Positions 31,201 through 55,259 of a stretch of DNA of 64,000 bases are shown here, in pieces. Every line of letters begins with the position of its first letter. Within the stretch, counting starts at the first letter, position 1. The position numbers and the translations under genes were made by a program. Under the pieces are notes generated by a model that was given only the letters and a program-made list of their open reading frames with translations, was not told where the DNA came from and made no database searches. Source of the DNA: Octopus vulgaris (lineage: Eukaryota); NCBI GenBank assembly GCA_951406725.2, contig OX597823.1:81220001-81284000 (forward strand). The letters run 5' to 3'.

Positions 31201-31391
31201 CAGCTGATCATGTATACATACATTAAATATATATAATGCATATAGGCACAGGCATGGCTGTGTGGTACGAAGCTTGCTTCCTAACCATATGGTTCCAGGT
31301 TCAGTCCCACTGCATGGCACCTTGGGCAAGTGTCTTCTGCTATAGCCTTGGGCAAACCAAAGGCTTATGAGTGAATTTGAAAAAAGCCCGT

Positions 31392-31436
<45 letters not shown>

Positions 31437-31439
<3 letters not shown>

Positions 31440-32216
31440 AATTAGAGAATGGAGAAACATATTTAAATCAATAAAACATCAACTATCCGATGATGCTCAA
31501 TCCATACTTTAATACACCATTACATAGGAGTAAAGGCAATATATAAAATGAAATGAAATGAGATATACAGTAATAGTAAAAGTAAAAAGATAAAGAGATA
31601 TAAGTAAAAAATTACAAATACAATATGCAAATAAATCAAAACTGACAGCTGTTTCGGCAGTGAGGACAGTCATACCTCATTTAACCTATAAGCCATAAAG
31701 GCAGGTATAAATGAGGCATTAACAAAGATGCCCCACGGCCTCTTCAGAGAATTAAATTAAATTTGTTATAATAGTGAAAAATATTATATAATCATATACA
31801 TATAAATATAAAAATATAAAAAAGTAAAATATAAAAACTTATACATCATAATGCTACACTTGTATAATATAATACACATTTGTACAAAAAGGAAGGTAGC
31901 CAGAACAAAATAAAACAAAATATATAACAGTGTATATATAATATTAATAAGTACCGATATCATACATATTTAGCTAATAGTTTTTTTTATATAAAAAAAA
32001 AGGGCTAACACATATGGAGATGAAAAATAATAATAATTAAATCAAGTGGTACAGTTCATAAAATTCTAAAGCTATAAAAGTTAATAAAAATTACTATTAA
32101 TAATAATAATAATAATAATAATGGAAGGATGGACTTGGTGATAACTTAACTGTATCTATTTTATTATTTTATTTTTTATTATTTTTATTATTTTTTATTA
32201 TTTTTATTATTATTAC

Positions 32217-32250
<34 letters not shown>

Positions 32251-33088
32251 AGTAATTTTTATTAACTTTTATAGCTTTAGAATTTTATGAACTGTACCAC
32301 TTGATTTAATTATTATTATTTTTCATCTCCATATGTGTTAGCCCTTTTTTTTTATATAAAAAAAACTATTAGCTAAATATGTATGATATCGGTACTTATT
32401 AATATTATATATACACTGTTATATATTTTGTTTTATTTTGTTCTGGCTACCTTCCTTTTTGTACAAATGTGTATTATATTATACAAGTGTAGCATTATGA
32501 TGTATAAGTTTTTATATTTTACTTTTTTATATTTTTATATTTATATGTATATGATTATATAATATTTTTCACTATTATAACAAATTTAATTTAATTCTCT
32601 GAAGAGGCCGTGGGGCATCTTTGTTAATGCCTCATTTATACCTGCCTTTATGGCTTATAGGTTAAATGAGGTATGACTGTCCTCACTGCCGAAACAGCTG
32701 TCAGTTTTGATTTATTTGCATATTGTATTTGTAATTTTTTACTTATATCTCTTTATCTTTTTACTTTTACTATTACTGTATATCTCATTTCATTTCATTT
32801 TATATATTGCCTTTACTCCTATGTAATGGTGTATTAAAGTATGGATTGAGCATCATCGGATAGTTGATGTTTTATTGATTTAAATATGTTTCTCCATTCT
32901 CTAATTTTGTAGTATTAATTTACGGTAATATTATTACCCTTACCCATTTAATACAATAGATGAACTGATTGCTTGGCAATTTCTAACATCTATGTATCAA
33001 TTTTGTTGGGTACCTATCTAGCAGTATATTGGATATATATTATCCCATGGTGGGTTGAATTTTCAACCCCTATCTCATTTTATAACCT
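31437..33088 (+). mobile_element. Hairpin element A: ~685-bp near-perfect inverted repeat plus ~180-bp tail; probable Penelope-like inverted pLTR remnant
   Basis: Arms ~31439-32122 and ~32225-32910 are reverse complements; flanked by (TA)n; hammerhead motif in each arm. Confidence 0.75.
32593..32708 (+). ncRNA. Type I hammerhead ribozyme motif (mirror copy ~31638-31753 on - strand)
   Basis: CTGAAGA (32599), long stem II GGC..GCC, GAAA (32691), palindromic stem III CAGCTG, GTC cleavage triplet (32700-32702); stem I is short (CT/AG). Confidence 0.72.
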
Positions 33089-33911
33089 ATATATATATAT
33101 ATATACATACACATGCACACACAAATGCATACACACATATTTATACATATATATATATATGTATATATATTTATATGTATGTGTCCTTGTGTCTGTCTTT
33201 GTTCCCAAATCATTGCTTGACAACTGATGTTGGTGTGTTTATGTCCATGTAACTCAGTGGTTCAGCAAAAGTGATCGATAAAATAAGTACTAGACTTACA
33301 AAGAATAAGTCCTGGGGTCAATTTCTTTGGCTAAAACCTTTTAAAGTGGTGCTCCAGCTTGGCTGCAGTCAAACGACTGAAACAAGTAAAAGTATATCAT
33401 CATAATTTAATGTCTGTTGTCCATGCTGGCATGAGTTGGATGGTTTGACCAGGGCTCGTACATTGATAAGCTGTACCAGACTCTTGTCTGATTTGGCATA
33501 ATTTCTATGGCTGGATGCCTTTCTTAACGCCAGCCCCTCTGAGAGTGCAATGGATGATTTTATGTGCCAGTGGCACAGGTGCCACTTGTGTGACACCAGT
33601 ATCTGCCATGACCATGATTTCACTTGGTTTGATGGGTCTTCTTCTCAAACATAACATGTTGGCAAAGGTCTTGGTCATTTGTCATTGCCTCCATGATGTC
33701 CAACACTCAAAATGTGCTTTTTGACAGGCCACTGACATGGGTACCAGTTACATGACACCAGCATCATCTACGACTACAATTTCACTTGGCTTAACGTGTT
33801 TTCTCAATCACGCCACATTGTCAAAGGTCTCAGTCGCTAGACATTACCTCTGTGAGACCCAACATTAAAAGATCATGCTTCACCACCTTATCACATGACT
33901 TCCTATATATA

Positions 33912-34200
33912 TATTATATAGAGGGCATTACTATACATGAATGCCACATGCTAGATGGGACTCTTAAAGTCAAATCTACCAAAATAAATAAACACATTGG
34001 ACCGATGTGTTTATTTATTTTGGTAGTTTTGACTTTAAGAGTCCCTCCTAGTGTGTGGCATTTATGTATAGTAACGCCCTCTATATAATATAAATAAATA
34101 TATTTAAGAGAAAAAATTGATGGATTTTTCTCTTATGAGGTTTTTCACGCTAACTACTTGATAAATTCTTATAAAGATTTTATCCTATTTTTAAATAGTA
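33912..34200 (+). mobile_element. Hairpin element B: ~89-bp arms, 1-nt centre at 34001, ~110-bp tail
   Basis: GAGGGCATTACTATAC...GTATAGTAACGCCCTC imperfect palindrome between TA runs; no canonical hammerhead core seen. Confidence 0.65.
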
Positions 34201-34285
34201 ATATATATATATATATATATGTCTAACTATCTATCTATCTACCTATCTATCAATCTATCTATTTCTCTATTTGTCTATCTCTCTA

Positions 34286-34322
<37 letters not shown>

Positions 34323-34395
34323 ATATATACACACACACATATATATATATATATAACTATGTATATATTTATATATATACATACATATATCTATA

Positions 34396-34439
<44 letters not shown>

Positions 34440-34775
34440 AAATAGCATGAAGTGTAAGGATGCAGAAAAGCATCAAGCCAAGGAAACGGAAAGAATTTTC
34501 ACTTACTGTTATTTCTCTGTTTGCTTGGTGCTTTTACGGTGGTTTAATTGAAACTTTAACTCTTATTTCTAGCAGGTTGATGCTTTTCTGCATCCTTACG
34601 CTTCATTCTAATTTGTATATTATAGCTAAAGAATGCATTTTGCCTGGGAACTATCTATGTTACTACTGTTGACACCATCAATTTTAAATTTTATCCACAG
34701 ATAATATTAACAATAGTAACATCTTATTTCAAACTTTAGTGTTTGAATGTTATGTTCACATATATATAATATACA

Positions 34776-35979
34776 CAGGGGTTGGACAAAATAATAGAAA
34801 CACCTCAAAATTTCAAACAAATTTATTTTAATATTGGGTAGGACCACCTTTGGCAGTAATTACAGCTTGAATTCTATGAGGTATGGACTCATACAAAGTT
34901 TGAATTGTTTCAGAAGGAATTTTTGTTCATTCTTCAGCTAAAACAGTCTCCAGTTCTGATAGTGATGATGGTGGAGGATTTCGACTTCTTATTTCTTTTT
35001 CTAAAATGCACCATAAATATATTCAATAATATTGAGATCTGGGGACTGTGGAGGCCAGATAAGATGTTCAAGTTCACTAGAATGTTCCTCATGCCTTTCA
35101 GTAACAACTTTAGCTGTGTAGATTGGTGCATTATCATCCTGAAAGATTGCATTTTCCTCCAGAAACAGTTCTGCAACCATAGGATGAATTTGATCAGATA
35201 AAATGCTTAAATAGTCTTAACTATTAATTCTACCATGAAGGGAAACCATTGGGCCAACGGATTTCCAAGATATAGCCCAGATCATCATAGATCCTCCTCC
35301 ATGTTTAACAGTTGGAAGAAGGCAGTCTGGGTCAAATGTTTCTTTTAGCTGTCTCCACATGTATACTCAGCCAGTGGTTGGAAATAAGGTAAAGGATGAC
35401 TCATCCAAGAAAATAACATTATTCTACTCTAAATGCTTTGCAACGTTTGTTTTTGAAAGTAGTGGTTTTCTGATTGCAGCCCTCCCCTGAAATCTGGCTT
35501 TGTGCAGCTCCCAGTGAACAGTTTTTGAGGAAACTGGGTTCTCAAGGAGGGAGCTGTACTTTTGTGATCCTTTCTAACATTTCACATAAAAGTCCAATGG
35601 TCCGTATTTGAACGTTTTGGTTTTCTTCTGGAGTTTTGTTTTGACAAGGAGATTTTTCCCTCTTTTTCAAAGACTGCCATTACTTTCCAGACAGTATTTC
35701 TTGATACACCAAACATTTCAGCTGTTTTCATTATGCTAGTGCCTCCCATACGAGCACCAACAATTTGACCTCTTTGAAAGTTCAACAGATCTGTCATTTT
35801 GATGAATTTTAATTACCTTTTTCTGATGGTATCTGAGAAGAAACAGCAATTTTAGCAAAACATATTAAGCAACACTAATAATAAATCAAAAAAACTTACA
35901 AGTAAACAAGCTTTTGACGGTTTTATAGGTATTTCAAAGTTATGATGCTAGGTGTTTCCATTATTTTGTCCAACCACTG
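34776..35979 (-). mobile_element. Tc1-family element with both TIRs and a degenerate transposase
   Basis: TIRs CAGGGGTTGGACAAAATAATAGAAACACCT / AGGTGTTTCCATTATTTTGTCCAACCACTG. Minus-strand peptide fragments: MTDLLNFQRGQIVGARMGG HTH, HGGGSMMIW, FQDDNAPI, WPPQSPDLNIIE. Confidence 0.92.
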
Positions 35980-36601
35980 TATATATATATATATGTACAT
36001 GTCTGTGTGTGTACATACACAAAACACACATATATTGTGTTTGCTTTTTAATATATATGTACCAATTGTATAAATTGTGAGGTCATTGTCTATAGGTATC
36101 TATTGTCATTCATTTGATAAGCAACTTAAAAATGATTGTATAATTTACAGATTACTTGTGATATTTAAATAAACTGTAACATTTATTTGTCTTTTTTTTT
36201 TATCTCATCAAAATCATGACATTTTTCTTTCACTCTTTTTCCCATGGAAAAACTTTTCCATGACCACAGGGGGAATGTAATAGGAACTCCAGATGGATGA
36301 AAAGCAAAGCTAATTCCTGTGAGACTTAAATCAAAAATTTAGAAAGATAAAAGTTAGATAATATCAGGAGAAATTCTTTACTCAGCATTTTTAACAGGTA
36401 CAGTGGTTAAGAAGCTTACTTTGATACTATGTGGTTTTAAGTTCAGTCCCCCTGCATGGCACCTAGGGCAAGTGTATTTTACTATAGCCTTGGGCTGTGA
36501 CTGAATTTGGTAGACAGAATCTCTGTCTCCCCGCCTCTCTCTCTCTCTCTTTCTCTCTGTATATATATAGATATGTATGTGTGTATATATATAGATATGT
36601 A

Positions 36602-36646
<45 letters not shown>

Positions 36647-36651
<5 letters not shown>

Positions 36652-37120
36652 TCAAAATAAAAACATGATGCCAAGGAATCAGTGGTACATATGTTTTGGG
36701 CCTTTATTAGACGGATTTATAACAATGCATAATGTGTGTCTGTGGCTTTTTTCAGCCGCGCACAACTACTACCTCAAGGACATGTATTACATCAAAAATT
36801 CTACGTTGGGGATGCAAATCCTCTCATTCGCGTACGACATAATGCGGCAACAGCATAAAAATGAAGCGTCCATTTTGTTCTTCTCTCAACGTAGAATTTT
36901 TGATATAATACATGTCCTTGAGGTAGTAGTTGTACGCGGCTGAAAAAGGCCACAGACACACATTATGCATTGTTATAAATCCGTCTAATAAAGGCCCGAA
37001 ACATATGTACCGCTGAATCGTTGGCATCATGTTTTTATTTTGATTAATTTACTCCACCACCTACACCACCAAACGGTATATACAGGTGCTTACAATTATC
37101 AAGTACTCACTCTGAATTTC
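36647..37120 (+). mobile_element. Hairpin element C: ~160-bp arms, 78-nt loop, ~70-bp tail
   Basis: Arms 36647-36808 and 36887-37048, about 7 mismatches; preceded by (TA)n downstream of a SINE head. Confidence 0.75.
36936..37013 (+). ncRNA. Hammerhead-like motif with a G8A core variant (mirror copy in the left arm)
   Basis: Stem I GCGG/CCGC, CTGAAAA, stem II GGCC..GGCC, GAAA, palindromic CATATG, GTA triplet. Confidence 0.6.
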
Positions 37121-37779
37121 TATATATATATAATATATATACATACACACACACATATAGGAAAAATATAATTGGCTGTTTATATTAATTTTTGTATATC
37201 CCATCGCTCACACACACACACAGAGGAGATATATCTTTCTCTTTCTTCCTGCTTCTGCCCCATCTCTCTCTCTCTCTCCCTCTCTCATTTTCTATCTATA
37301 AGTGTATATTTCTTTGCATGCATGTGTGTGTGTATGTGTATGTGTTTGCCTCCAGTGCCAAAATGTACTGTGACCAAAACAGGTTGAATGTGTCCTGTCA
37401 GCCTTGCCAAATCATCAACACCAGAAAAGCTATTTCCAATCGTCTCATTCTGCTTTTGGAACATGACTGGAACACTTACAGATTACCATAGACATAACCT
37501 GTCTACCATTTTACTGATGAGGCCATGCAGCACCATCCAATTATACTAATTACAAATGTGATGTTAGACACCTTCGTTAACTAACCACCATTATATTTTC
37601 AGTTCAACATTTGAGTTGTTGTAATTCATTAGCGTTTCAGTTTATTTACTGGACAGCGTTATAGTCATTTGACATTGCTATGTTGATTACTAATCAATAC
37701 ATTGTTATCATATTTGTAATGAAGTTTAATATCAGAAATATTGTGTTCTTTCATGATCTATCGCTATGCTGATTCATCA

Positions 37780-38850
37780 AAGGTATTTCTTAATTTTAGG
37801 AAAAGTTCATATGAGCACAACATAAGAAATCATTGTTTGCATTATCTACAATGCTGTCTGAAGCAATGATTTGCATATTAATTCTTAATATATTCAAACA
37901 GATTCAAACACAAATATGCCAGTAGCTGTTGTGTATGACACAAAAGAACAACTTCTCCCTTTTACGATGACAGAGTGTTCATATACATTCAGCATATTAG
38001 TGCAAGGGAGTTATGGACACCTATGTTTCGACATATTGTGTCTCGTCTATTAGAATCACCTGAATCTTTAAGCCTAAATCACCAGCTGGCTATGTTTATA
38101 CTGTTTGCTGATCAATGCTTATATCTGCCAACTGATAAGATACTGCTATTTCACAATGTATAGTAAAGTCTGAAATGACAATTTGCATATTGACTCTTAA
38201 TATATTCCAACAAATGCAAATATGCTAGCTGCTGCTGTGTATAGCACGGAAGAACAATTTCTATGTTTAATATGACAGTGTGTTCATAATGCCCTTCACT
38301 CATTGGTGCAAGAGATTCTAGGACAACTGTGTTTTGTTATGTTGTGCCTTATCTGCTAGAAGCACTGAGGCCTTTGAGTCTGAACAACCCACTGTTTTTT
38401 TTTTATACTTTCAGTAAATAAAATGTTTGGTAGTCAGTGTTTCTTTCTGCAAACCAATAGAAAATCATTGTTTGCACTGTGTACAGCAAGAGCTGAAACA
38501 ATAATTTACATATTTATTTTTAATATGTTCTCACAGATTCAAACACGAATATACTAGTCACAGAACAACTTCTCCTTTTCACAATGACAGTGTGTTCATG
38601 ACTCACTTGGCTCATTGGTGTAAAGGATTCTGGGACACCTGTATTTTGACATGTGTCTCATCCACAATAGCACCCAGGCCTTTGAACCTAATCAACCTGC
38701 TGGCTTTGTTTATTATTTCAGCAAGTGGATTATTTGCTGATCAGTGCTTATATCTACTAACTGATAGAAAATTGTTATTTGTACTGTGCACAACAAGACC
38801 TGAAACAATGATTTGCGTTGATATTTTCAGAACATTCCAGCAGATTCTAA
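37780..38850. repeat. Diverged tandem array, ~310-bp unit, about 3.5 units
   Basis: The motif (GA)AAATCATTGTTTGC..CTGAAACAATGATTTGCATATT..AGAACAACTTCTCC recurs near 37828, 38136, 38460 and 38765. Confidence 0.7.
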
Positions 38851-39426
38851 GAATTTTCTTGAAAGTGTTGAAATTCAGTAACCATATGTACCACATGTAT
38901 GTGGAACAACTTTGCAAAGCCATTGTGTCTTCACTGGTAGAAATGTAAGACTGTTGGGAAAAAAATGTTATAGTGTTGGTTTCAGTCCTTGGCTCTTTAC
39001 ATTCTGAGTTTAAATTTGCTTTTCATCCTTTCGGGGTTGATGAAATAAAGTACCAGTCAACTACTAGGGTCAATGGCATCAACCAACACTCCTTTCATCA
39101 AAATTGCTGGCATTGTTCCTAAACAGGAAAAACCATTCTTCTTCTCCACCTCCTCCCCATCATCATCATCATCATCACCACCACCACCACCATCATCACC
39201 ACCCACTAACATTTTCACCTTCATAATCATTGCCATCATCACTCTCACCACCACGACCATTACCATAATCATCATCATCATTATTAATTGACCAATGGCG
39301 GTGAACTCTGACAAAGACTTAACAAAGTCCAAAATCACAATAAGTTCAATAACTGTTTTACTACTGAGAACTTGAGGTGAATATTTCTTCATTTTCTTTT
39401 ACAATTATGTTTAATCTCTCTCTCAA

Positions 39427-39493
<67 letters not shown>

Positions 39494-40419
39494 ACACATG
39501 TATATATACATATATATATATACATACATATATACATATATATATGCATAAATATATACATACATACATACATATATGTACACATACATACACATACATA
39601 CATACACACACATACACATACATACATACACATACATACACACATACATACACACACATACACACATACATACATACATACATACATACATACACATATA
39701 TATATATAATTAATCCAAAAAAATGAAGAAAAAACAACAGCACGTAGACGTGGTACATGCAAAGTATTAAAAGATGCTCAAAGTATTAAAAGCTGCAAAA
39801 TTATCATAGAACTGTTACTCAGAGTTTCATGTTCCCATTTGTTGTTACAGTTCACAACTGTCTGGTGAACAGTTGAGTAATAATTTTGCACCTTTAATAA
39901 AAAGTACTTACTCTACCTTTGATATTCGAGTACTATTTTTTCCACCTTATTTTGCACTTATGTGCTTACCTGTGTATGTGTGTGTGTGTTTGTGAACATA
40001 TGTGTGTGTGTGTGTGTGTGCCTTTTATCTTTTACTTGTTTTGTTTCAGTTGTTGGACTGTATCCATGCTGGGGCATCACCGCGAAGAGGTTTTTAGTTG
40101 AATCAACTGATATCAGTACTTATTAATAATATTGTTTATCCTTCACCTAACTCAGAACCTGCAATTTGTTTGGATCTGGAGTTTATAGAAGGCAATGCAA
40201 TAGGTGCAGTGAGTGTAGCCATGCGTGACCATCATGACTCATTGTGTATTCAGTCAGTCATTTGTGAATGTATGATATAACCAGGGAACAAATCCATGCT
40301 TACTTTAGTGAGTAACTTCGTGATCAAACATTGTACCTGATAGCATTATCCCTGACCTGACCTTAGTGTTTTCACTATTCAAATACCTGATTCACTCAAA
40401 TCCTGGAAATTATATATAT

Positions 40420-40762
40420 ATAATGTAAAGTATAGAAGCCATCTTATCATGGCTAACCACATTGGGGAGGGGGTGTTACTGTAGCTTTATAGCCCCAAGA
40501 GGTCTTCGTCTCTAGCTGGCTTTAGACACAATATCAGTGTCCTTGGAGTATTTGCAAAGGGAGGCCATCCCTTCCTCGCAAGCCTCAAATACTCCAAGGA
40601 CACTGATATTGTGTCTAAAGCCAGCTAGAGACGAAGACCTCTTGGGGCTATAAAGCTACAGTAACACCCCCTCCCCAATGTGGTTAGCCATGATAAGATG
40701 GCTTCTATACTTTACATTATCGAGTGATTACTGTTTCAATCTCATTCTGAGATTTAATTATA
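40420..40762 (+). mobile_element. Hairpin element D: perfect 135-bp arms, 31-nt loop, ~42-bp tail
   Basis: 40420-40554 is the exact reverse complement of 40586-40720; flanked by TA runs. Confidence 0.78.
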
Positions 40763-40763
40763 C

Positions 40764-40810
<47 letters not shown>

Positions 40811-40831
40811 ATATGTATATATATATATATA

Positions 40832-41031
40832 TAAAGTTAATCCAAACAAGAAAGCACAAAAGAACACAACAACGCGAGGACGTGGAACAAATATAGTATT
40901 ATCGGACGCTCAGGAAAGAAGTAGGGTTTAACGTTTCGAGCGGAGCTCTTCATCGGAAACATAGGAGAAGGAAAGATCCAGAGAAGGGAAGACAGAGGAA
41001 AAAAAATTACCAACGGTACACACGAGGTCAC

Positions 41032-41033
<2 letters not shown>
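40832..41033 (-). mobile_element. Short TA-flanked element with a minimal hammerhead motif (40926-40960)
   Basis: Minus strand GTTT CCGATGA A GAGC TCC GCTC GAAA CG TT AAAC; related to the 54183-54325 element. Confidence 0.6.
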
Positions 41034-41073
<40 letters not shown>

Positions 41074-41281
41074 TTATATATATTCCTGTATGTTATATTT
41101 TAATAATTACTGGTATATTTATATATTAATATATTTTATATGTAAAGCATAATATGTTAAACATGTATGTATATTCTTGTAATTGTCATTTTAGTAAATA
41201 AATAAATAAGTTGACATAGAATGTCTAAAAGTTGATGAACCACCTATTGATCCCCTCCATTTTCTTATTGCTGTATATAAA

Positions 41282-41325
<44 letters not shown>

Positions 41326-41328
<3 letters not shown>

Positions 41329-42213
41329 GGTGCATTGGGTAAATTGTTGCCATAATATATTTTTAATTTCATGCATGTGCATTGTTTGTTTTTGATTTTG
41401 TTGACTACACTATATGGTAGGGTCAGTTGGGTACCACCTGTGAAAAAAACAGCACCATGACACAATTCACTCTGCCAGAAATTTGGAAACAACATGCTGT
41501 ACTTCATGGCATTCATGCTAGGAGCTCCAATACAAACATTTCAGAGTGTTTGCATGTCGATTTTAGGACAGTGCAGTCTGAGGACATGGACTGAGAGTGA
41601 TAAAAATCAAACATCCAGTCAACATCATGGTGTTTGGAGTGATCACTAGTGTTGGTGAAGTTGTGTCTCCATTCATCTTCTCACACAGCATCAGACTCAA
41701 CATGGAGGCCTACATTAACTGCCTTGAGGAGGCAGTACTGCTCTGGGTCAAGAGGGTGGCTGCTGGAACATCCTATGTCTGGCAACAGGACTCTGTACCA
41801 TGCTACACATGCAGGAGAACCCAGTCATGACTGTCAGATAATTTCTGTAGCCACATCACCCTTAATATCTGGCCACCTAACTCCCCAGACTGCAACCTCT
41901 TGATTATTATGTTTGGGGCGCAGTTGAGCAAGAGACCAACAAAATTCTTTGTAACACCAAAGATGAACTGAAGGCAAGGTTTATGGCAGCATTCACCAAC
42001 TTAAACAAGGAGACTGTCAAGAAGGGTTGAGAAAGGTTCTGAAGTCATCTGGAGGCCGTAGTTGAAGCCAATGGTGATTTTATTGACTAAATCTACTCTT
42101 TAGTATTTCAAGATATTTTTATGTAATTTTGGTAAATATATCTGTTAAAATGAGATGTCAGTATTATTTTCATTTTTGCATAATTTAGATGACAATTTAT
42201 TCACCGCACCCTG
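41326..42213 (+). mobile_element. maT-type (DD37D) Tc1/mariner element, internally deleted
   Basis: TA-CAGGGTGC..GCACCCTG-TA ends; IMVFGVI, WQQDS...WPPNSPDCNLLDYYVW with 37 residues between the 2nd and 3rd Asp. Confidence 0.88.
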
Positions 42214-42217
42214 TATA

Positions 42218-42759: not shown

Positions 42760-42784
42760 TAAATATATATATACATATATACCT

Positions 42785-43095: not shown

Positions 43096-44564
43096 ATATA
43101 CACATACACATACACTTGAATGTATATGCAAATACACACATGCACATGATATATATTGTACATTTTGAACATTATCTAAATATATTCTAGTATGGTATGC
43201 TATTACCATTTTTCATGATGCTGAATTACAATGACTAATTAAAAATCTTGAGGTATTATGCAACTTTGTGTCCTGGATCTTACTCTGATCAAATTTACCT
43301 TTCACCCACCAATGATCAATAAAATATGTGCCAATCATGAATTAGCAATAATCAAAAAAAGCATATCTCTCCCAGATAAGATTTTGTGTTAATATTAAAA
43401 ACCATTATCAACGTTTAAGGGATATGAGGAAAGGCACACACATACATATAATTACTCATACACATACAGAAACAGCTATCTAATCTATTTATATATTTTT
43501 ATACTCATATGCATGTGTATAAATATGTATTAACCTATATTTGCATGTAGTGTTGTGTGTGTATGAATCATTATGTGTGTGTTCATTATGCATTTATATG
43601 AATATGTATGTTTATCTAAACCTGTATATTTCTGAGAGTGGTTTTTCACCCTCAGAGTGTATTGCATTATTTGTGTGTGTGTGTGTGTGTGTATATATAT
43701 GTATATATATATATCGTGCCGGTGGCACGTAAAAAGCACCAACCGATCATGGCCGTTGCCAGCCTCCCCTGGCACCTGTGCCGGTGGCATGTTAAAAGCA
43801 CCCACTACACTCACGAAGTGGTTGGCGTTAGGAAGGGCATCCAGCTGTAGAAACACTGCCAGATCAGACTGGAGCCTGGTGCAGCCTCCTGGCTTCCCAG
43901 ACCCCGGTCGAACTGTCCAGCCCATGCTAGCATGGAAAATGGATGTTAAACGATGATGATGATATATATATAAAGTAAAAAGTAAAGGAGTCAAAAGGAA
44001 GAGTAAGTACAGTTAGGCAGCTTTTTAATCGCTACAAATGTTTCCATACATACAGATCCTCATATATACATGATTTAAAGTTTAAATTAAATTATTTAAC
44101 GATTTACCTGTATAAGAAGATCTATATGTATCTCTTCAGGCGATACTCAGTTGCTGTCTCCGTAAGCAAAATTTAGATTTCCATGCTGCAACATCCATGG
44201 CTTCTTCTTTGAAACTAACAAATGCTGATGGTTTCAATTCACTCGGTATGAGTGTGCTATCACATTTGACATGAGGAATACCTAAGACTAGAATTGGTAG
44301 CATACTATAAGAATACTACCAGTTATTTGAGAATTCTTAGGGTGAACAAGCTCTATTTGTACTCTTAGATGTTCTTAACAGAACACACCTCAACTGACTA
44401 TATATATATATATTCATTTTTATATTTTTTGAGATCTAGTTATAAGTTATATGTTTTATAAAAATATATATTATTTGTTATTTATGTTTTGGTTTATGTC
44501 TATCACTGTTTGAGTTGCATAATAGTGGTTTTATCTCTAATTTATATTTTATATATATATATAT

Positions 44565-44970
44565 ATCACCTTGACTGACCAGTCCGTCAGGTGTCCATTT
44601 GACACCACTGGCCACAGCACGCTGTCCATTCCTCTCTGCATCGCGCCTTTCTCAACCACGTGAAGCCAATCGTCCTCCTGAAATCATAACTCCACCATTG
44701 TGGAGGCCTTCCAAGTGGTAGTTTCTGCTCGTGCGGGTACCACTCGACAACTGTGCGGGTCCACCGATTATCGGTGAACTGGGCGACGTGTCCAGCCCAT
44801 CTAAACTTGCTGCGTGTATACTCTGCGATGACATACCTCACGCCAGACTTCTTTCTGATGATCTCGCTACTGATGTGATCCCTCAATGAGATACCTTTCC
44901 ACGGCTCTTCGAGCCGTTACCAGTCTCTGCTCTTCTCTCTTTGTTGTAGCCCATGTTTCACTACCATATA
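44565..44970 (-). mobile_element. RTE-clade LINE 3' fragment
   Basis: YGSETW..., SKFRWAGHVAQFTDNRWTRTVVEWYP..GRPPQWW. Confidence 0.88.
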
Positions 44971-45233
44971 CATACATACATATGTGTGTGTGTGTATGGT
45001 TCTTAATGTAATTGTTTCTTTGTATTAAAATGCGTTCCAAAATAAATGCACACTTTATTTTAATGGCTCTGAGGATGCAATAAGATGTTGCCCAAACATT
45101 CAGCACTGAGTCTTATAGCAGAAACAGCTGCAAGTTAATGAAGTTGAGTATGCAATACCTATTCCTTAGTCATTCAATAATTTGTATGTGAGTGTGTGTG
45201 TGGTTAAGAAGCTTGCTTACTACCACTACCACC

Positions 45234-45269
<36 letters not shown>

Positions 45270-45295
45270 GCTGCTGCTGCTGATGATGATGATGA

Positions 45296-45330
<35 letters not shown>

Positions 45331-46407: not shown

Positions 46408-46630
46408 TATGAGGGGTGCTGAAAAATACCTGGCTTCAGGTAAAAGAAAATACAGGAGGATCAGTTAATTGTGATTTTATTCACCATATTCCCCTTTCAG
46501 ATTTACACACTAATTTATTGCAGGGTCGTTCTGTTATTCTAAGCCCTGCAAAAGAACTCAGAAGGTTGGTCCTCCAACCAGGCCTTTTGTGATACCCTTA
46601 AAGCCAGGAACTTTTCACCACCCCCACATA
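46408..46630. mobile_element. Mariner-type MITE
   Basis: Imperfect TIRs GAGGGGTGCTGAAAAATACCTGGCTT / AAGCCAGGAACTTTTCACCACCCCC with TA flanks. Confidence 0.65.
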
Positions 46631-46738
46631 CTTTAGCCAAATTCTGCTGAAAGTATTTCAGATTTCAGAGTCATATCATACAGAGATGTCAAGAAGGAGC
46701 ATTTTGGGATACAGAAAGTAAGTTTATATGAATCTACA

Positions 46739-46797
<59 letters not shown>

Positions 46798-46872
46798 ATA
46801 TATGTATATATATATATGCATATATATGAATATATGCAAATATGCATGTGTGTGTATATATATGTATGTGTA

Positions 46873-46905
<33 letters not shown>

Positions 46906-48243
46906 GCATTTATATGTGTGTGTGTGTGCATCCATGTGTGTGAGTGTGTGTCTGTTTCTGCCTTCTTGTCTTTAGATCATGTAACAGTCGTAAATGAGTG
47001 CCACTGTCACACAAGCTGTTGTCATTCATTTCAAATATTTTCCCCATGTTCTCATTCACAACTATCACATAATATCAAAACAAAGAAACACACACACCCA
47101 CACAATTACGTACACTATGGGCTCCTTTCAGTTTCCATTTACCAGATTCACTCACAAGGCTTTTCGTTGTAAATATGAAATGAACATGAAAACTACCAGT
47201 CAGTTGAGTGGCAATAATAGCAGAAGTAAATAAAAGCAATCAGTACAAACTTTTAATAATAAATGCAGAGAAAAAGTAAAAATCTTGCACCAACATGCCA
47301 CATTCGATTTGTCATACATTGCTCACCTTGACATGTAAGCTAACAGGAAGTCTAAATAGAGATACAACATATATTAGTTTCTTACCTGGGCAGAAAGCCA
47401 AAGAAAGACGTTTACTGTGGGATTAACATTGTGAAATAGTCACTGATAAATAACAATCTTTGGTAGGTTATGTGTTACGTTCATTATGACCACACTAACA
47501 GCAGTGTCAGTTCTCAAACATTTTTATTTACATATGCATTTACACACAAACAAACACACACAGACACACACACAGATCTATAAGCAAAAGTTGGGTAAAT
47601 AGAACAGCCTTCAAAAGTTTCACAGCGTAATATGCTAAATAGTAATTAGTAAACTGTTTATAATTATTAAGAACAAATGAAGTAGAAAGAATGAAAGAAT
47701 CGTAAAGTTGACATAGTTTCAAGTAGTGTCTCTAGGGAGAACAATTAGAAAAAGTAAGACCACCTACAATGGAACTGAGTAACATTGTTACTTAGCGGTT
47801 TGGCAAAAGAGACCAATAAAATAAGTACTGGGCTTACAAAAGAATAAGTCCCAGGGTCGAGTTGCTCGATTAAAGGCGGTGCTCCAGCATGGCCGCAGTC
47901 AAATGACTGAAACAAGTAAAAGAGAAAGAGTAAAAGAATATAGCACCAGAAATGGTTCTATCTGGGAATTCAGAATCCCAGTTTATGTAATACTCAGTGG
48001 TATTTCTAGAAAGTTCAACCAAACTATTTGACAGGAATGTTCCAATTCACTTGGTTATACACCAGCCGATCTCATTGGCTGAACCAATTTTGTAGGGGTA
48101 TTAATGCCTTTTATAATGACATAAATTTTCATAACTGGCTTTGCCTTTTATGACAGTATGGTCAGTCAGGGTCCTGAGCAGATGGTGAATCTCAGCATGA
48201 TGGTTCAAACCACAGTAAGAACCTTGCTACATGCATATGTTAT

Positions 48244-48525
48244 GGGCATATGGCATAGTGGTTAAGAGCGGGGGCTACTAACCCCAAGATTCCGAGTTCG
48301 ATTCCAAGCAGTGACCTGAATGATGATGATGATAATGATGATGAAGAGGAAGAGGAAGAAGAAGAAGAAGAAGAAGAAGAAGAAGAAGAAGAAGAAGAAG
48401 AAGAAGAAGAAGAAGAAGAAGAAGAAGAAGAAGAAGAAGAAGAAGAAGAAGAAGAATACCTTAGGAATGAGAACCCAGGTTCGAAATTTCCCCAAGATAC
48501 CTGATGAAGGCTGGAGGGTATATGT
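48244..48525 (+). mobile_element. tRNA-headed SINE with an internal (GAT)n/(GAA)n expansion and truncated hammerhead-like motifs
   Basis: A box TGGCATAGTGG, B box GAGTTCGATTCC; then GAATGAGAACCCAGGTTCGAAA and CCTGATGAAGGCTG. Confidence 0.6.
48355..48456 (+). repeat. Pure (GAA)n tract, ~34 units
   Basis: Directly visible. Confidence 0.95.
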
Positions 48526-48790
48526 CCTACAAACCCTGGTGGAACAAAATTGCATCATAACTGTTGAGGAACTAGCAGAGAAGCTTGGATTTGGTCATTC
48601 AACCATTCACTGACTCCTATATGCCATCGGAAAAGTCAGCAAATTGGGTCAATGGGTTCCTCACAAACTTTCTGAGTGTAATCGCTCACAGAGAGTGAAT
48701 GTATGCTCTTCTTTACTTTCACATCATACGAATGAACCTTTTCTGGACTGAATAGTGACTGGTGATGTGAAATGTCAAGTGCACAGAAAA
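48525..48790 (+). mobile_element. Mariner transposase fragment
   Basis: TVEELAEKLGFGHSTIH..IGKVSKLGQWVPHKLSE..FLD*IVTGD; the WVPH.L motif is typical of mariner. Confidence 0.85.
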
Positions 48791-49083
48791 TGTAATCAGT
48801 ATGTTAGGTTTTATATGACGTACATATCTTTTATATGACAAGTCACAGTTAATCATAGCTGCTTTGTGTCACATTACAGGCAGGTAAGCTTGGGCAATAA
48901 ACTGTCAGGCCTTCTGAAATGTGCATATTGTGTAAAGCATAAAATACCAATTATATCTTCTGTTTGTCAAACCACCTCAAGAGCAGGAGTAGAATGTGGA
49001 ACTTATGGATAGTGCATGAACCTTCTGAATATAAGTCTTGCTTTCCAGTGCACCTTTCAAAGTAAGCTATGTCTAACATACAC

Positions 49084-49162
<79 letters not shown>

Positions 49163-49907
49163 GCACATAAAAAGCACTCACTACACTCTTGGAGTGGTTG
49201 GTGTTAGGAAGGGCATCCAGTTATAGACACCTTGTCAGATCAGATTGGAACCTGGTACAGCCTCCTGGCTTGCAAGTCCTCAGTCAAACTGTCCAACCGA
49301 TGTCAGCATGGAAAGCGGACATTAAACGATGAATGATAATATATATATGTGTGTGTGTGTGTGTGTGTATATATGAATACATGTATGTATGCATATATAA
49401 ATATAAGAGATGGTATTATCAAGATACCAACTCATGTGGCAAGTGAGTTATCAACTGTACAAGCAAATTAATAAAAAATATATATACAAGTACTTATATA
49501 TATATACATACATGAAGGCACAACATGAGCATCTCCATCACTAAAAATTGAAGTAAAAAATACTTCTACAAATCTATTACAGGCATGGGAGTGTGTATGT
49601 GTGTGTGCGTCTTTGTATTTGTGTTTGTCCTCCCATCAACACTGAACAACTGGTATTGGTGTGTCCCTGCAACTTAGCAGTTTGGCAAAAGAGACCAATA
49701 GAATGAGTATTAGGCTTAAAAAGTAAGCCCTGGGGGTCGATTTGTTTGCCTAAAACCTTTCAAGATGTAGCTCCATCCAGCATGGTTGCAGTCAAATGAC
49801 TGAAACAAGTAAAAGAATATATATATATATATATATATAAATATATATATATATATGTATATATATATATCTGTAAATGTAATATGTGACAATTATTCGG
49901 TAGCCAT

Positions 49908-49968
49908 TTTAAAACTCTGAGTTTCGGATGCCGAGGTGGAAATCCATGTCGCCATCTCTTCAGTTATT
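49908..49968 (-). ncRNA. Hammerhead ribozyme motif within a TA-flanked element (~49870-50340)
   Basis: Minus strand TAA CTGAAGA GATG..CGA..TGGA TT TCCA..TCG..CATC C GAAA CTCAGAG TT TTA. Confidence 0.62.
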
Positions 49969-51344
49969 CGGCCATCGGAAAATTGCTATGAAAAATGACT
50001 GTTATACAAAGGGAAATTACTGTGTGATTGACCATTATTAAGACAAAAGAGCTATTTGAATGACTGCTAAGTAAGGGGTTAAATAGTTCATAGTATTCGC
50101 GTAAGCGCACCTGTTCATACCTGCACATGCGTGCCCGAACACCCACGTGTGTGCGCCTAAAGATATACATTCATCCACCCTCACTTGAAAACTTACACAT
50201 CCTCACTCTCACTATTTGCCAAATGTATATGTATATACATACAAACCTACACACACACACGTGCACACCACAAAGGTTCTTACACACGTCTATATACGCA
50301 AAAGCACAAGAAAAAACAGGGCTAAGGGTAACAATACAGAATATATATATATATGGTGGCTGTCCCCTCTTTATTGAGTATGGCCATTGCTTGAAGCTTA
50401 ATCAATGTTGTTATCGTGCAATGCCTGTGCAAGAAGATTTTTATTAAAGTGAGGAAAGGCTGTGCACTGAGTCAATCCCACTCACTAAGCAACAGCAGCC
50501 ATAATCCGAAAAGAACAAGTCAACATCATCAGTAACCACTGAGCTGCAGGTTTTATGTCGGAGTTATCCCAGTTACCTGAGTTACCTTCTCCTAGAAGGA
50601 TGCCCTAAGAGTCCTTCACTCCCAATGGTTTAACCGTGCGATCAGGTATTCAGTCCGATTATTTCTATGTCTCCGCGCATGATACAGCCTTAAGACATTT
50701 ATTGGATGGCCATTGACTCTCAAGAGTTCCTCCGCCCTTTGACGGGTTTTGTTTTTCATCCCACAGGGTGTCCAACACACACATACACATTCATATATAT
50801 ATATATATACGTATATATTTACAATAGGCTTCTTTGAGTTTCCGTCTACCAAATCCACTGAAAAGGCTTTGGTTGGCCTGAGACTAAAGCAGAAAACACT
50901 TACCTAAGATGCCACACAGTGGGACTGAACCCCAAAGTATGCTTCTTAGTGATGCACTTACACCTGTGCTTGTGCTGTGCCTGCACCTATAAAGAATGAA
51001 AATAACAAGAAAATAAACTACACCACCAAAAATTTTCCAACAAACTGCTGTTTTTATTATTACAAATATACCATCCACCCACTGAAAAATTTCATGAAAT
51101 AAAGTATTAGTAAAAACTTTTTTTTTACTATAATCATTTTATTATATTTATGTATTTATTTTGCAAGATTCCTGATGTGAAATCAAGCATTGAAACAGAT
51201 ATTGTTAGATTTCAGGATCGTCCTTTATTTTTGTTGTTGTCTTTTTTGCCAAATAAACACATGCACTATATATTTGCTCTTCACTTCAGCTTTATTAAAT
51301 AAGCATCCAACATATAACAATATTTTGTTATAACTTATTGATTA

Positions 51345-52620
51345 AGGTGGTGAGATGGCAAAATGATTACTGCACCAGAAGAAAATGTGTTCTTTACATT
51401 CTGAGTTCAAATTCTCCTAAGGTCTAGTTTACCTTTCATCCTTTTGGGTTCGATGAAATAAGTACCAGTTGTGACTTGGAGTCGATGTAATCAACTAGCC
51501 CCCATCCTACTAAATTTCAAGCCTTGTTGCTATAGTAGGAAGGATTATTGATTTATTAATTTAAGTGGTGAGCTGGCAGAATCGTTAGCATACTGGACAA
51601 AATGCTTAATGGTATTTCATCTGCCATTATGTTCTGAGTTCAAATTCTGCTGTGGTCGACTTTGCCTTTCATCCTTTCAGGGTCGATAAATTAAGTACCA
51701 GTTACGCACTGGGGTTGATGTAATCGACTTAATCCATTTTTGTCTGTCCTTGTTTGTCCCCTCTGTGTTTAGCCCCTTGTGGGTAGTAAAGAAATAGGTA
51801 TTTCATCTGTCTTTATGTTCGGAGTCCAAATTCTGCCAAATTCGACTTAGCCTTTCATCCTTTTGGAGTCAATGAAATAAGTACCAGTTGTGCACTAGTA
51901 TCAATGTAAACAACTAGAAACCCTTCCCTAAAACATTTATGCTTATAATAGAAGGGATTGTTATTTGTTGATTTATATAAATCAATATATTTATATACTT
52001 ATTGATTTATATAAAGGCAGTGAACTGGCAGAATTGTTACTGTGCCAGCCAGAATGCTTAGCAACATCTCACCTGTATATATGTTCTGAATTCAAATTCC
52101 TCTAAGGTTGACTTTGCCTTTCATCCTTTCAGGATCGATAAAATAAAGACCAGTTGAGCACTGGGGTTGATGTAACCGACTTAGCCCCTCCCCTGAAACA
52201 GCTGGCCTTGTGCTAAAATTTGAAACCAATATTTATTGATTTATTCTTTTCTACTCTAGGCACAAGGATCGAAATTTTGGGGGAGGGGCCTGTCGATTAG
52301 ATTGGCCCCCAGTATGCAACTGGTACCTAATTTATCGACTCTGAAAGGATGAAAGACAAAGTTGACCTCGGTGGAATTTGAACTCAGAATGTAGCAGCAG
52401 ACGAAATATTGCTAAGCATTTTGCCTGGTGTGCTAATGTTTCTGCCAGCTCACTGCCTTATGTTTATTGATTTATTGAACAGGATGGATTGGCAGGAATT
52501 TGTAGTTTTCAGTTCAAATCCCACTGAGGTTCACTTTGACTTTCATTTTCCCAGGGTCAATAAAGACCGATATTAATCAAACCCCAGAGATGATTTAATT
52601 GACAATACTCCTCCCCCATT
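51345..52620. mobile_element. Cluster of about 6 Meta-domain SINE copies, one inverted
   Basis: Repeated GCCTTTCATCCTTTCAGGGTCGATAAATTAAGTACCAG; the copy at ~52245-52460 is on the minus strand. Confidence 0.8.
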
Positions 52621-53344
52621 TTCAGGCAGCAGATAACACACAGACTATAATTACAAACAGTGATTATAGAGAGACTCTTTATGATGATGTCATTCATTCC
52701 GATGATTATGGAAGTTTATTCAGTTCTGAACATGATAAACGATGATTGTGCAGGATTTTAATGAATATTTGTTTGAAATATTTTAAGATTTACGATGTAA
52801 TTATAATTTGAAACCATATCAAATTTCTACTTCAGTTTTGTATGCATAAATAAATAACGCCTACAAATTCATTTTCATTCCCCCATATTTTTTTGTTTCC
52901 ATTTAAATATTTATAGCTTCCAACCTAATTAGAAATATAAAATATAAAAAAAATATCCAGTACAGATATAGAAATACTGTGATGAGTGTGATTTCAATGA
53001 ATGTAGATGATCACGTATAAGGAACATGACTAACTCGGCAAGTGTAAATATTCATAAGAGATACATTGCCATATTTAATTAGTAGGGCATGTGTTTTGAT
53101 GCGTAGACAGGATAATTATGGTTATTATGTTATTATTATTGTAGTTCATCGTTTTCTTTTCGTTTATGCGTTTAAGAGATCATTCTGAGTTCTGCTACTG
53201 ATGTATTTTACATTGAGCTTTTAATTGCAACCCTTTGAGAGTTGTATCCATGCAATAGGTGACCCTTGAAATTATACAATACATGTGAAATACATACACA
53301 CATGCACAAAATATATATAGATATACATGCATATATATATGAAT

Positions 53345-54178
53345 GGAGATTGTCAAAATGAAGGGGACACCTCTGATGAGAACCCAATAAGGTTTGGAAA
53401 TTGATTAAGCTTGTTCATCATTTTTTCAGTCTGTGGAAAAATGGTTACAATTTGCCCTCTTTTCCTCTTTTATTTGCTTCAGTCATTTGACAGCGGCCAT
53501 GCTGGAGCACCACCTGTAGTTGAGCAAATTGACCCCAGGACTTATTCTTTTGTAAGCCTAGTACTTATTCTATCAGTCTCTTTTGCTGAACTGCTAAGTT
53601 ATAGGGACATAAACACACCACCATCAGTTGTCATGAGATGTTGGGGGGACAAACACAGACACACAAACATATGCACACAAATATACGACGGCTTCAGTTT
53701 CTGTCTACCAAATCCACTCACAAAGCTTCGGTCGGCCCGAGGCTATAGTAGAATACACTTGCCTAAAGTGCCACACAGTGGGACTGAACCCGGAACCATG
53801 TGGTCGGTAAGCAAGCTACTTACTACACAGCCACTCCTGTGCCCTGTTTATAATTATACCATATGTTACATATATATTATATCATACCTTGATACTGTGT
53901 GGATTAAGATCTCCATTGACAGGCCACTGGTATCTATTGTGTTAAACACTTTTGGTATGCAAATTAGTGAATCCTTCATAGAGTAACTAATGCATTTATT
54001 AAGTATATAAACAGTTTGGCTGGTTGCTTCTCTGGAGATTGTTAAAATGATGTGGATGCCTCTGATGAAAATACAATAAGGTTCAAAAATTGATTAAGGT
54101 TGTTCATCATTTTATTCAGTCTGTGGAGAAATGACTAAAATTTGCCCTGTTTATAATTATACCATATGTTATGTATAT
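53345..54178 (+). mobile_element. Direct-repeat element with two hammerhead-like motifs (retrozyme/pLTR-like), interrupted by a minus-strand SINE at ~53460-53840
   Basis: 53345-53459 plus 53841-53875 repeats at 54033-54178; both copies contain CCTCTGATGA(G/A)AA..CAATAAGGTT..AAATTGATTAAG; TGCCCT is duplicated around the SINE. Confidence 0.65.
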
Positions 54179-54321
54179 ATATATTTTCTCTCCTTGTTCC
54201 TTTCTGTGGAAGAGTGTGGGCTTGAAATGTTAAAGACTTTTTCACTTCCTGAGCGTTATACTAATACATCTGTTTGTTGTCTAAACCACCTGTCTTCGCC
54301 TTTTGTTTTTTTGTGAATTCT

Positions 54322-54355
<34 letters not shown>

Positions 54356-54412
54356 TTACACACACACACATATATATATATACACATATATATACATACA
54401 CATATATATATA

Positions 54413-54711
54413 TTAAATATGGGGAAGGCCAGTTTATGGGATTACCTTAGGTTTCCTGTCCATAAAGGGTTTAGCCTTATGGTATATCGTCAGATCCCAA
54501 AAGTTTGTTGGTCCATGACCTCTTAAAAATATGGAGGTCACAGGCCAACATATTTTTGGGATTTGATGATATGCCATAAAGCTAAACCCTTTATGAACGG
54601 GAAACCTAAGGTAATCCCATAAACCCGCCTTCCCCATTTTTAACATGTACTGTTCTACATCTTAGAGATGTGCCTCTTCTTTCGGATTTATGTTTTTTAC
54701 AAACAATCCGA
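54413..54711 (+). mobile_element. Hairpin element E: 110-bp arms, 11-nt loop, ~68-bp tail
   Basis: Arms 54413-54522 and 54534-54643; TA runs on both sides. Confidence 0.78.
54438..54498 (-). ncRNA. Type I hammerhead ribozyme motif with an intact core (sister copy 54558-54618 +, C3U)
   Basis: GGGAT CTGACGA tataCCATAAGG ctaaac CCTTTATGG acag GAAA CCT A AGG TA ATCCC: 5-bp stem I, GTA triplet. Confidence 0.75.

Positions 54712-55208: not shown

Positions 55209-55259
<51 letters not shown>

Follow-up and report, generated by a model that had tools for sequence, protein, structure and literature searches.

Results

Probable head-to-head insertions of Penelope-like elements

In a 64,000-nucleotide stretch of the Octopus vulgaris genome (the window), we consider it quite probable that several Penelope-like retrotransposon (PLE) families gave rise to the hairpins A, C, E and probably D by 5'-truncated insertion, each hairpin being made of two 3'-end copies placed head to head, one of which carries a tail; we infer that a PLE protein was the agent. 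The hairpins are likely to be new members of an already known insertion type. PLE insertions are described in the excerpted text of PMC8557442 as having an inverted 5'-truncated copy, a tail at one end and a (TA)n target, and they have been found head to head with 8-10-bp target site duplications (PMC3846280). An initial annotation had taken five hairpins, A to E, for non-coding ribozyme hairpins of several families, derived from PLEs or mobilised by them. The architecture, the type and polarity of the hammerheads, empty-site paralogs and family data for A, and the 12-bp duplication of a D-like copy support a PLE origin of A, C, E and probably D; the membership of B is doubtful. No new category is needed, since the plan is that of the inverted truncated copy plus tail in the published excerpts (PMC8557442, PMC3846280, PMC4209133). 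A search of titles and abstract beginnings found no published description of these elements, which may figure among families catalogued outside the searched literature (e.g. Repbase).

Hairpins between TA tracts

When the arms were aligned within the window, all five hairpins proved real, with 87-100% complementarity over 86-684 nt (Table 1). Tracts of (TA) repeated at least four times lie no more than 12 nt from both ends in five of five hairpins, as had been claimed; as background, such tracts plus 6 nt make up 3.5% of the window. The arms are indeed unrelated, as the sense halves of A-E gave no cross-match in a blastn comparison with the window. The proposed common plan of arm, loop, inverted arm, short tail and (TA)n holds for A, C, D and E except that the tails are not all short, and B fits it doubtfully. 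A sixth hairpin candidate, K, was absent from the original five, and descriptor scans of the window found no hammerhead in it.

Table 1. Positions of the hairpins, their parts and related features in the window
Feature	Position	Strand	Remarks
A hairpin arms	31439-32122 / 32224-32907		0 mismatches in 684
A left arm	31439-32122	-	Inverted tail-less copy; hammerhead core at 31747, minus strand
A loop	32123-32223	+	Extra 5' sequence with (TAT)n, probably part of the longer right copy
A right arm	32224-32907	+	Sense copy
A hammerhead	32599-32702	+	CUGAAGA, 85-nt stem II, GAA, palindromic stem III, GUC at 32700-32702; stem I weak
A tail	32908-33088	+	181 nt; sequence of family members, contigs run from arm to tail
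SINE-like repeat, 5' half	31240-31435	+	Interrupted by A; ends in (TA)19
SINE-like repeat, 3' half	33088-33392	+	With TA/CA tract
B hairpin arms	33912-33997 / 34005-34090		7 mismatches in 86
B	33906-34200	+	86-92-nt arms, 7-nt loop, tail of about 104 nt to next (TA)n; hammerhead absent; doubtful member
K	34438-34760	+	Arms of 44 nt, loop of 100 nt; flanked on both sides by TA tracts, ~140 nt to the next one
C hairpin arms	36647-36808 / 36887-37048		7 mismatches in 162
C	36647-37120	+	162-nt arms, 78-nt loop, 72-nt tail; hammerhead 36940-37009
D hairpin arms	40420-40554 / 40586-40720		0 mismatches in 135
D	40420-40762	+	135-nt identical arms, 31-nt loop, 42-nt tail; hammerhead absent
Short D relative	9696-9779	+	Inverted arm end and last ~20 nt of tail
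H	40835-41033	-	Minimal hammerhead with U4C (core 40956); TA tract on one side, TG tract on the other
F	43975-44399	-	Non-inverted; hammerhead core 44139; between TA tracts
G	49871-49976	-	Non-inverted; hammerhead core 49963; TA tract 43 nt away; 5' limit provisional
E hairpin arms	54413-54522 / 54534-54643		14 mismatches in 110
E	54413-54711	+	110-nt arms, 68-nt tail; hammerhead-like motif 54563-54613 (+), 54493-54443 (-)

In the three hairpins that bear the motif (A, C and E), the sense hammerhead lies in the tailed arm and the polarity is head to head; the polarity of B and D is not fixable, as they have no hammerhead. The one-sided tail is encoded by the family in A, copies of which end near the arm end or the tail end, and in D, the tail end of which recurs in a second copy. 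This short relative holds both termini of D, its sense arm is absent, and 12-bp direct repeats bracket it (9684-9695 and 9780-9791). MITEs and other TIR DNA transposons have inverted repeats at their very ends and a short fixed target duplication; A, C, D and E do not fit this, as their sequence runs 42-181 nt past the right arm.

For B, and perhaps D and K, a different origin has a serious chance, a little short of even: these could be unrelated TA-targeted palindromic DNA elements, either MITE-like or of a tyrosine-recombinase type with an extended right repeat, which resemble A, C and E in shape only. DIRS-type elements, described in excerpts of PMC8969392 with an internal complementary region, a tyrosine recombinase and ITR/ICR, were considered only for such a repeat. 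All three hairpins lack a hammerhead, and the inverted repeat of B includes TA-like runs on both sides, the right arm ending in one, so that B may be a symmetric hairpin with a separately inserted piece as its "tail". One motif each from B and D gave 0 exact matches in the supplement on Naiad PLEs, a comparison that line breaks and divergence make weak. However, the duplication around the D relative is 12 bp rather than TA or a fixed 2-9 bp, and the 208-nt sense part of D may simply end before the hammerhead, as the site in A is 386 nt from the tail end.

Pfam searches with the 150 longest of the 210 window ORFs of at least 62 aa found 0 matches to RT or GIY-YIG domains; the matches obtained were limited to Tc1, piggyBac-like and a single chance hit. 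No copy was seen joined to an RT/GIY-YIG ORF, which truncated copies would not be expected to contain. Exact patterns from A and D gave 0 and 0 matches in metagenome contigs.

Hammerhead motifs

The claim of a hammerhead in both arms of A, C and E holds fully for A, the only one of the three that is intact in both arms (CUGANGA, GAA, NUH and G10.1-C11.1). C carries G8A in both arms and additionally G12A in the left arm; in E, the G10.1-C11.1 pair is absent from either arm (the stem II base is unpaired), the right arm has C3U, and stem I is 6 bp. Descriptor scans found no hammerhead motif in B or D. Rfam gave 0 matches at gathering score over the whole window, and at E<=10 within 31000-42000, 0 of 78 rows were hammerheads, the matches being miRNA shapes far below gathering.

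A descriptor requiring stem II returned nine rows, against a mean of 1.05 (maximum 3) in 20 shuffles: three in A and C, three in other TA-abutting elements and three chance-like. A second descriptor, which demanded a perfectly palindromic stem III and was drafted after the motifs had been seen, returned five hits, two in A, two in E and one in C, versus 0.19 per shuffled window (100 shuffles). By eye alone, a degenerate hammerhead-like element was also noticed at 54185-54325; it failed both descriptors. Calculated self-duplex energies of stem III (A -11.1, C -7.0 and E -8.2 kcal/mol) suggest that this palindrome could pair two copies in A, C and E. The hand-built active monomer lay 6.7 kcal/mol from the MFE for A, 5.0 for the right arm of C and 0.4 for the left arm of E, and no clean active conformation of A or C emerged when dimers were folded without constraints. 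Among 40 of 43 variants listed for A-family contigs, none of at least 8% fell on the 19 core and stem III positions, where about one is expected by chance; the stem II variants at 32680 and 32685 are unphased, and pairing is kept on one side only.

The hammerheads of F, G and H all face a TA tract 43-97 nt downstream, and the 3' end of H is 70% similar to 39710-39780. A 58-aa frame ending at the F hammerhead was examined as a GIY-YIG end and rejected, as it had no homolog in 15 candidates and no Pfam match.

Element A and its family

The SINE-like repeat split by A has three uninterrupted paralogs in the window (55038-55456, 58217-58661 and 53467-53843); by this comparison, A appears to be inserted in an internal microsatellite of that repeat. 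A-family contigs numbered 1295 and 522 in two DNA runs and covered 29 of 30 bins, and contigs crossed the arm-tail border (e.g. X13 record 15, 32886-33084). Judged from these contigs, A evidently belongs to a highly repeated family with the arm running directly into the tail. Of the 146 loose ends, 24 were listed; one of these, at 32915, passes into (AT)n and foreign flank, and others pass at 33072 into 12 other letters and (TA)n and at 33096 into foreign flank. Summed depth, which is not copy number, drops at the arm-tail border from 625k to 116k in X1 and from 190k to 61k in X3. No strand-change joint, and hence no direct view of variable junctions, was found among the contig joints listed, and none of the contigs listed spans A's own locus. 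An intron (GT..AG) between the cleavage site and the arm end was rejected, as no such joint occurs in the contigs, which themselves cannot exclude it.

Could A-like hairpins be transcribed as a fixed non-autonomous arm-loop-arm-tail unit and mobilised in trans by PLEs, like a palindromic SINE or a retrozyme? This is nearest to the wording of the initial annotation, and we hold it improbable. It would account for the termini common to D and its short relative, yet two RT start sites also predict these. A-family words occur in 20 runs of six studies, which would suit a transcribed unit; 15 of these runs are guessed to be RNA and may be DNA, and none listed is recorded as RNA. Against it, depth over A is not flat: it drops by about 10-fold or more towards the 5' end, with the lowest values in the 5' bins, a gradient that would agree with variable 5' truncation of the copies (depth again not being copy number), and F, G and H are non-inverted copies of the same general kind.

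The arms of A share unusual alleles: 32851 C is absent from the contig depth of four runs, and 32884 A makes up no more than 0.15% in DNA runs. Two independent primings explain rare alleles common to both arms less well than would gene conversion, assembly homogenisation or the copying of a single cDNA. We think it very unlikely that the perfect palindrome of 684 bp arose as an artefact of assembly or polishing. Zero mismatches, these private alleles and the lack of a listed contig across the locus are what an artefact would give; however, the palindrome ends at the element borders without copying flank, another A-family copy gives way to (AT)n no more than 8 nt from the same point, and four other hairpins with 0-13% arm divergence have the same plan.

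Proposed mechanism of insertion

How PLEs produce inverted copies and tails is called still open in excerpts of PMC8557442 and PMC11167929. With PAc, a PLE of Anolis, it was shown in vitro that two RT start sites define the tail, that both strands are nicked and extended, and that the ribozyme is dispensable (PMC11167929). By extension from this anole element, an RT-GIY-YIG protein would nick both strands of the (TA)n target, and each nick would prime reverse transcription, one at a distal and one at a proximal start site on the RNA, the stretch between the two becoming the tail. Both cDNAs would stop early and be joined at their truncation points, so that the loop would represent their difference in length, and the hammerhead would be a passenger from the pLTR.

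We lean towards this twin priming, leaving a lesser chance to fold-back and a small one to other routes. In fold-back, the 3' end of a truncated cDNA (or an antisense template) would prime itself and be copied back, and endonuclease resolution would leave a one-sided tail; the PLE origin is kept. Self-priming (PMC3846280) and, in excerpts of PMC8557442, endonuclease resolution have both been proposed for PLEs. Taken separately, we rate fold-back as rather unlikely. It would explain why the arms of A are identical over 684 nt with alleles rare or absent in the family, and those of D identical as well, and small palindromes or hairpins occur at the junctions of C, D and E. However, it offers no simple reason for the copied arm to stop at a family-specific point before the tail, and the short D relative, unless altered by a later deletion, has no sense arm, its inverted arm end being joined to only ~20 nt of tail.

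Predicted masking of the ribozyme

The earlier suggestion that fold-back of the RNA could compete with cleavage was understated. In both directions of transcription the antisense arm comes first, and 93-100% of the hammerhead bases are predicted to pair with it. Because the hammerhead is always in the arm transcribed second, read-through RNA would form long dsRNA and not cleave; these folds predict a block of cleavage rather than mere competition with it. Perfect hairpins of 135-684 bp, if transcribed, would be strong ADAR or Dicer substrates, and octopus is reported in excerpts of PMC5625713 to have an exceptional share of dsRNA loci and of hyper-editing.

Discussion

As annotation these elements are ordinary, and their value is as study material. 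In a genome dense in young copies, the sharing of alleles between arms, the position of the junction and the length of the tail can be counted, and such counts could distinguish twin priming and fold-back. The published range of tail lengths would be extended by tails of 68-181 nt. A much bolder picture, which we offer as a long shot, is that the palindromic stem III brings two RNAs together by pairing and delivers both to a dimeric RT-endonuclease, that family tails reach up to 180 nt, that young head-to-head insertions give a genome-wide readout of the PLE inversion step, and that much of the near-perfect dsRNA behind this lineage's very high A-to-I editing comes from the self-silencing hairpins.

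Comparison with known systems

Excerpts on the EN+ PLEs (Penelope/Poseidon, Neptune and Nematis; PMC8557442, PMC3846280, PMC8969392) describe the features seen here: a truncated copy inverted head to head, a tail on one side, a target that is AT-rich or (TA)n, a pLTR that carries the hammerhead, and a target duplication of variable length. The window copies differ in having no ORF, and assignment to a clade needs protein. Tails in these excerpts are typically 30-40 nt, which is not strictly defining, versus 42-181 nt here. In PAc, a Poseidon element (PMC11167929), two 3' ends likewise define the tail and the target is AT-rich, but its ORF starts inside the hammerhead, whereas A has no open frame from the hammerhead through the tail.

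The minimal type I hammerheads of PLEs (PMC4209133) resemble those found here in the short stem I, palindromic stem III and long stem II, in the extra base after A9, which C, F and H also have, and in the dual motifs 100-700 bp apart on opposite strands. Helix II is 7-8 bp there and longer in A and F, where the stem II insert is 85-88 nt, and the palindromes here are 8-9 nt; C and E deviate in the core or at the G10.1-C11.1 pair. Naiad PLEs, which in excerpts of PMC8557442 include Octopus families, share the (TA)n preference, the inverted copies and, with B and D, the absence of a canonical hammerhead; they differ from A, C and E, where hammerheads are present, and the displayed 3' end of Naiad_Obim is, by eye, unlike B or D. 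Non-LTR retrozymes (PMC7229834; 10.64898/2026.07.22.740005) are also non-coding, PLE-related and equipped with a type I hammerhead. No head-to-tail hammerhead tandem was present among 46 TRF rows; retrozymes form such tandems and can release circles, whereas the elements described here are head to head, with one sense ribozyme per strand.

Architecture of the hairpins

Five inverted repeats, A to E, were found where the initial annotation had located them (see table), each consisting of (TA)n, a left arm, a loop, a right arm, an unpaired tail and (TA)n. We conclude that they are most likely standard insertions of Penelope-like elements (PLEs) of the truncated-inverted plan, not a new class, and the PLE origin proposed earlier held up. 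We are highly confident of this assignment for A and only slightly less so for C and E, and we consider it probable for D; for B it is tentative, because TA-like runs on both sides fall within its inverted repeat.

A tract of at least four TA units lay no more than 12 nt from each end in all five hairpins, whereas such tracts with a 6-nt margin make up 3.5% of the window. The arm-to-arm mismatches, mostly transitions, were unequal in number, suggesting that the elements are of different age. No cross-similarity was detected when the sense halves of A-E were compared with each other. Tails, which had been described as short, were present but longer than that, at 42-181 nt. The tail lies on the right in all six hairpins, including the candidate K, and three non-inverted hammerhead-bearing elements near TA tracts (F, G and H) point left; with n=6, this may be chance.

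Features of the window, with arm-to-arm mismatches and tail lengths of the hairpins
Feature	Position (strand)	Mismatches	Tail (nt)	Remarks
Hairpin A	31437-33088	0/684	181	
Hairpin B	33912-34200	7/86	about 104	
Hairpin C	36647-37120	7/162	72	
Hairpin D	40420-40762	0/135	42	
Hairpin E	54413-54711	14/110	68	
Candidate hairpin K	34438-34760			outline as A-E; 44-nt arms
F, G, H	44139, 49963, 40956			descriptor 1 rows
Uninterrupted SINE-like paralogs	55038-55456, 58217-58661, 53467-53843			
Relative of D	9696-9779			
Presumed Helitron	9630-9995 (-)			non-autonomous
Ubiquitin ligase exons	27699-27785, 8110-8163 (-)			
Tc1-like transposon	34769-35986			TA-flanked; 37-bp terminal inverted repeats; HTH and DDE_3 remnants
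Second Tc1 remnant	3-798			
piggyBac-like transposase remnant	5430-5642 (+)			DDE_Tnp_1_7
Presumed RTE-type LINE C-terminus	44590-44916 (-)			
Pieces resembling decayed pseudo-LTR 3' ends	39709-39900, 54185-54325			TA-abutting
Telomere-like AACCCT repeats	56169-56237, 61000-61010			degenerate; within larger AT-rich repeats
Direct copies of ~330 bp	37800-38900			three or four, diverged; no named family (by eye)
Putative endonuclease frame	60271-60753 (-)			161 aa

Hammerhead motifs

Rfam reported no hammerhead in the window at the gathering threshold and none among the 78 rows at E≤10, probably owing to the long stem II. With a descriptor of the hammerhead core and stem II (descriptor 1), the window had 9 rows, whereas shuffled windows averaged 1.05 (20 shuffles, maximum 3). 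The 9 rows comprise two in A, one in C, one each in F, G and H, and three (38132, 59118 and 37418) that look like chance. Descriptor 2, which required a perfect palindromic stem III and was composed after the motifs had been seen, gave 5 matches, every one in A, C or E; the average over 100 shuffles was 0.19. No hammerhead motif was found in B, D or K.

The hammerhead motifs claimed for A, C and E are present, but are less intact than stated, with core or stem II changes in C and E. In A, where stem I is weak, the motif comprises CUGAAGA, G10.1-C11.1, a stem II of -38 kcal/mol, a palindrome of 8 nt and GUC. The motif of C is predicted to be inactive, since each of its arms carries G8A and the left one has G12A as well. 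In E, the core is canonical in the left arm and bears C3U in the right; stem I is 6 bp long and the palindrome 9 nt, but stem II has four positions at its base that do not pair. In all three, it is the tailed arm that holds the sense ribozyme, which is oriented toward the tail, so the two copies are joined head to head. The ribozymes of F, G and H are likewise directed at a TA tract, which follows at a distance of 43-97 nt.

Insertion sites and other copies

The left and right flanks of A are the first and second halves of one SINE-like repeat, and in three uninterrupted paralogs these halves are separated by a TA/TG tract only, indicating that A inserted into this tract. A relative of D (arm 81% over 69 nt, tail end 17/18) lies in what we take, from its TC start, hairpin and CTAG end, to be a Helitron. 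Because this relative shares both termini, the two ends of D are family ends, and its identical flanking 12-bp direct repeats indicate that the family yields long target duplications outside microsatellites. The piece at 39709 and H are 70% alike over 76 nt, and a T-rich GATTAA end is common to both and to the arm end of C.

The sense part of A was found in 20 of the 24 listed runs (6 studies, one organism; 0.39-0.71 of words). Contigs of four runs aligned to 32265-33100 (1295, 522, 50 and 27 contigs) cross from arm into tail; the RNA label of runs X4 and X13 is a guess and not proof of transcription. Among the 24 of 146 loose contig ends that were viewed, one departs at 32915 into (AT)n and foreign flank, apparently a tail-less family end at another locus. 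Further ends leave the A sequence at 33072, where 12 different letters precede (TA)n, or at 33096, where a foreign flank follows; others enter it at 33020, seemingly from a related family with the last 70 nt in common. In each of the four runs, summed depth, which is not copy number, falls where the arm meets the tail, and the DNA runs have their lowest values in the 5' bins; optional tails and 5' truncation would be expected to give this pattern. No strand-change joint occurred among the listed contig joints, and no listed contig spanned the A locus. Among the 40 variants viewed of 43, none fell in the ribozyme core, which is not significant.

Coding sequences

Of the 210 open frames in the window, the 150 longest yielded no match to an RT or GIY-YIG family, no homolog was found for the frame upstream of the F hammerhead, and two metagenome scans gave no matches. 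The case for PLE membership is therefore built on architecture and on the type of ribozyme. The 161-aa frame has 6 homologs (37-50% identity, RT domain in two) and resembles the restriction-like endonuclease at the C-terminus of what is presumably a CRE-type non-LTR element; the RTE-like frame had no Pfam match. The two exons read as the zinc-ribbon start of a ubiquitin ligase, presumably RNF115/RNF126-like (exon 1: Pfam Zn_ribbon_19, E 0.006, below cutoff). This gene runs leftward, and thus A-E lie upstream of it.

Proposed mechanism and predicted ribozyme masking

We infer a PLE target-primed insertion with two primings, in which (TA)n would be nicked on both strands, one nick would prime at the distal RT start and the other at the proximal one, and both cDNAs would end early and then be joined to each other. 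Two primings would account for the order of the copies (head to head), the loop, the tail-less end at a fixed position and the short relative of D. Both arms of A bear alleles rare or absent in the contigs (32851, 32884, 32620 and 32374), suggesting one template or source, or later homogenisation; the main rival, in which one cDNA would fold back on itself, explains these shared alleles better than two primings do. Either origin has the identical functional consequence.

In read-through RNA from either side, the antisense arm is transcribed first. When prefixes ending just past the cleavage site were folded at equilibrium, not kinetically (C and E on both strands, A on the plus strand), 0.93-1.0 of the ribozyme bases were paired with the upstream arm and none were in ribozyme stems. 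On this model, read-through would yield a long dsRNA instead of a cleaving RNA, and only transcripts that start inside the element could cleave. Such dsRNA is a plausible ADAR substrate, judging from published work on octopus and on palindromic repeats (PMC5625713).

Comparison with published PLEs and retrozymes

PLEs often bear an inverted 5'-truncated copy and a 30-40-bp tail at one end, a tail shorter than those of A-E, and Naiads, which occur in Octopus and favour (TA)n, are without canonical hammerheads (PMC8557442). Likewise, pLTRs (PLE pseudo-LTRs) are described as inverted head-to-head with a 31-bp tail and TSDs of 8-10 bp, self-priming being proposed (PMC3846280), and inverted pLTRs with 3' extensions are routine curation features (PMC8969392). 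Minimal pLTR hammerheads have a palindromic stem III, form opposite-strand pairs 100-700 bp apart and show low activity, as dimers only (PMC4209133). Two RT start sites bound the tail, both strands are nicked and extended, a dimer is predicted, and ribozyme cleavage is dispensable in vitro (PMC11167929). The tail of C (37049-37075) begins AC-rich, recalling the AC-rich stem-loop reported there at the RT start of Poseidon of Anolis; small stem-loops were predicted close to the tail ends of A, D and E (no shuffle control). Octopus vulgaris has 31 recently active Penelope-like families, and the repeat library of that study may already contain those of A-E (PMC13282606). Finally, non-LTR retrozymes are defined as head-to-tail tandems (PMC7229834; 10.64898/2026.07.22.740005), whereas A, C and E are head-to-head.
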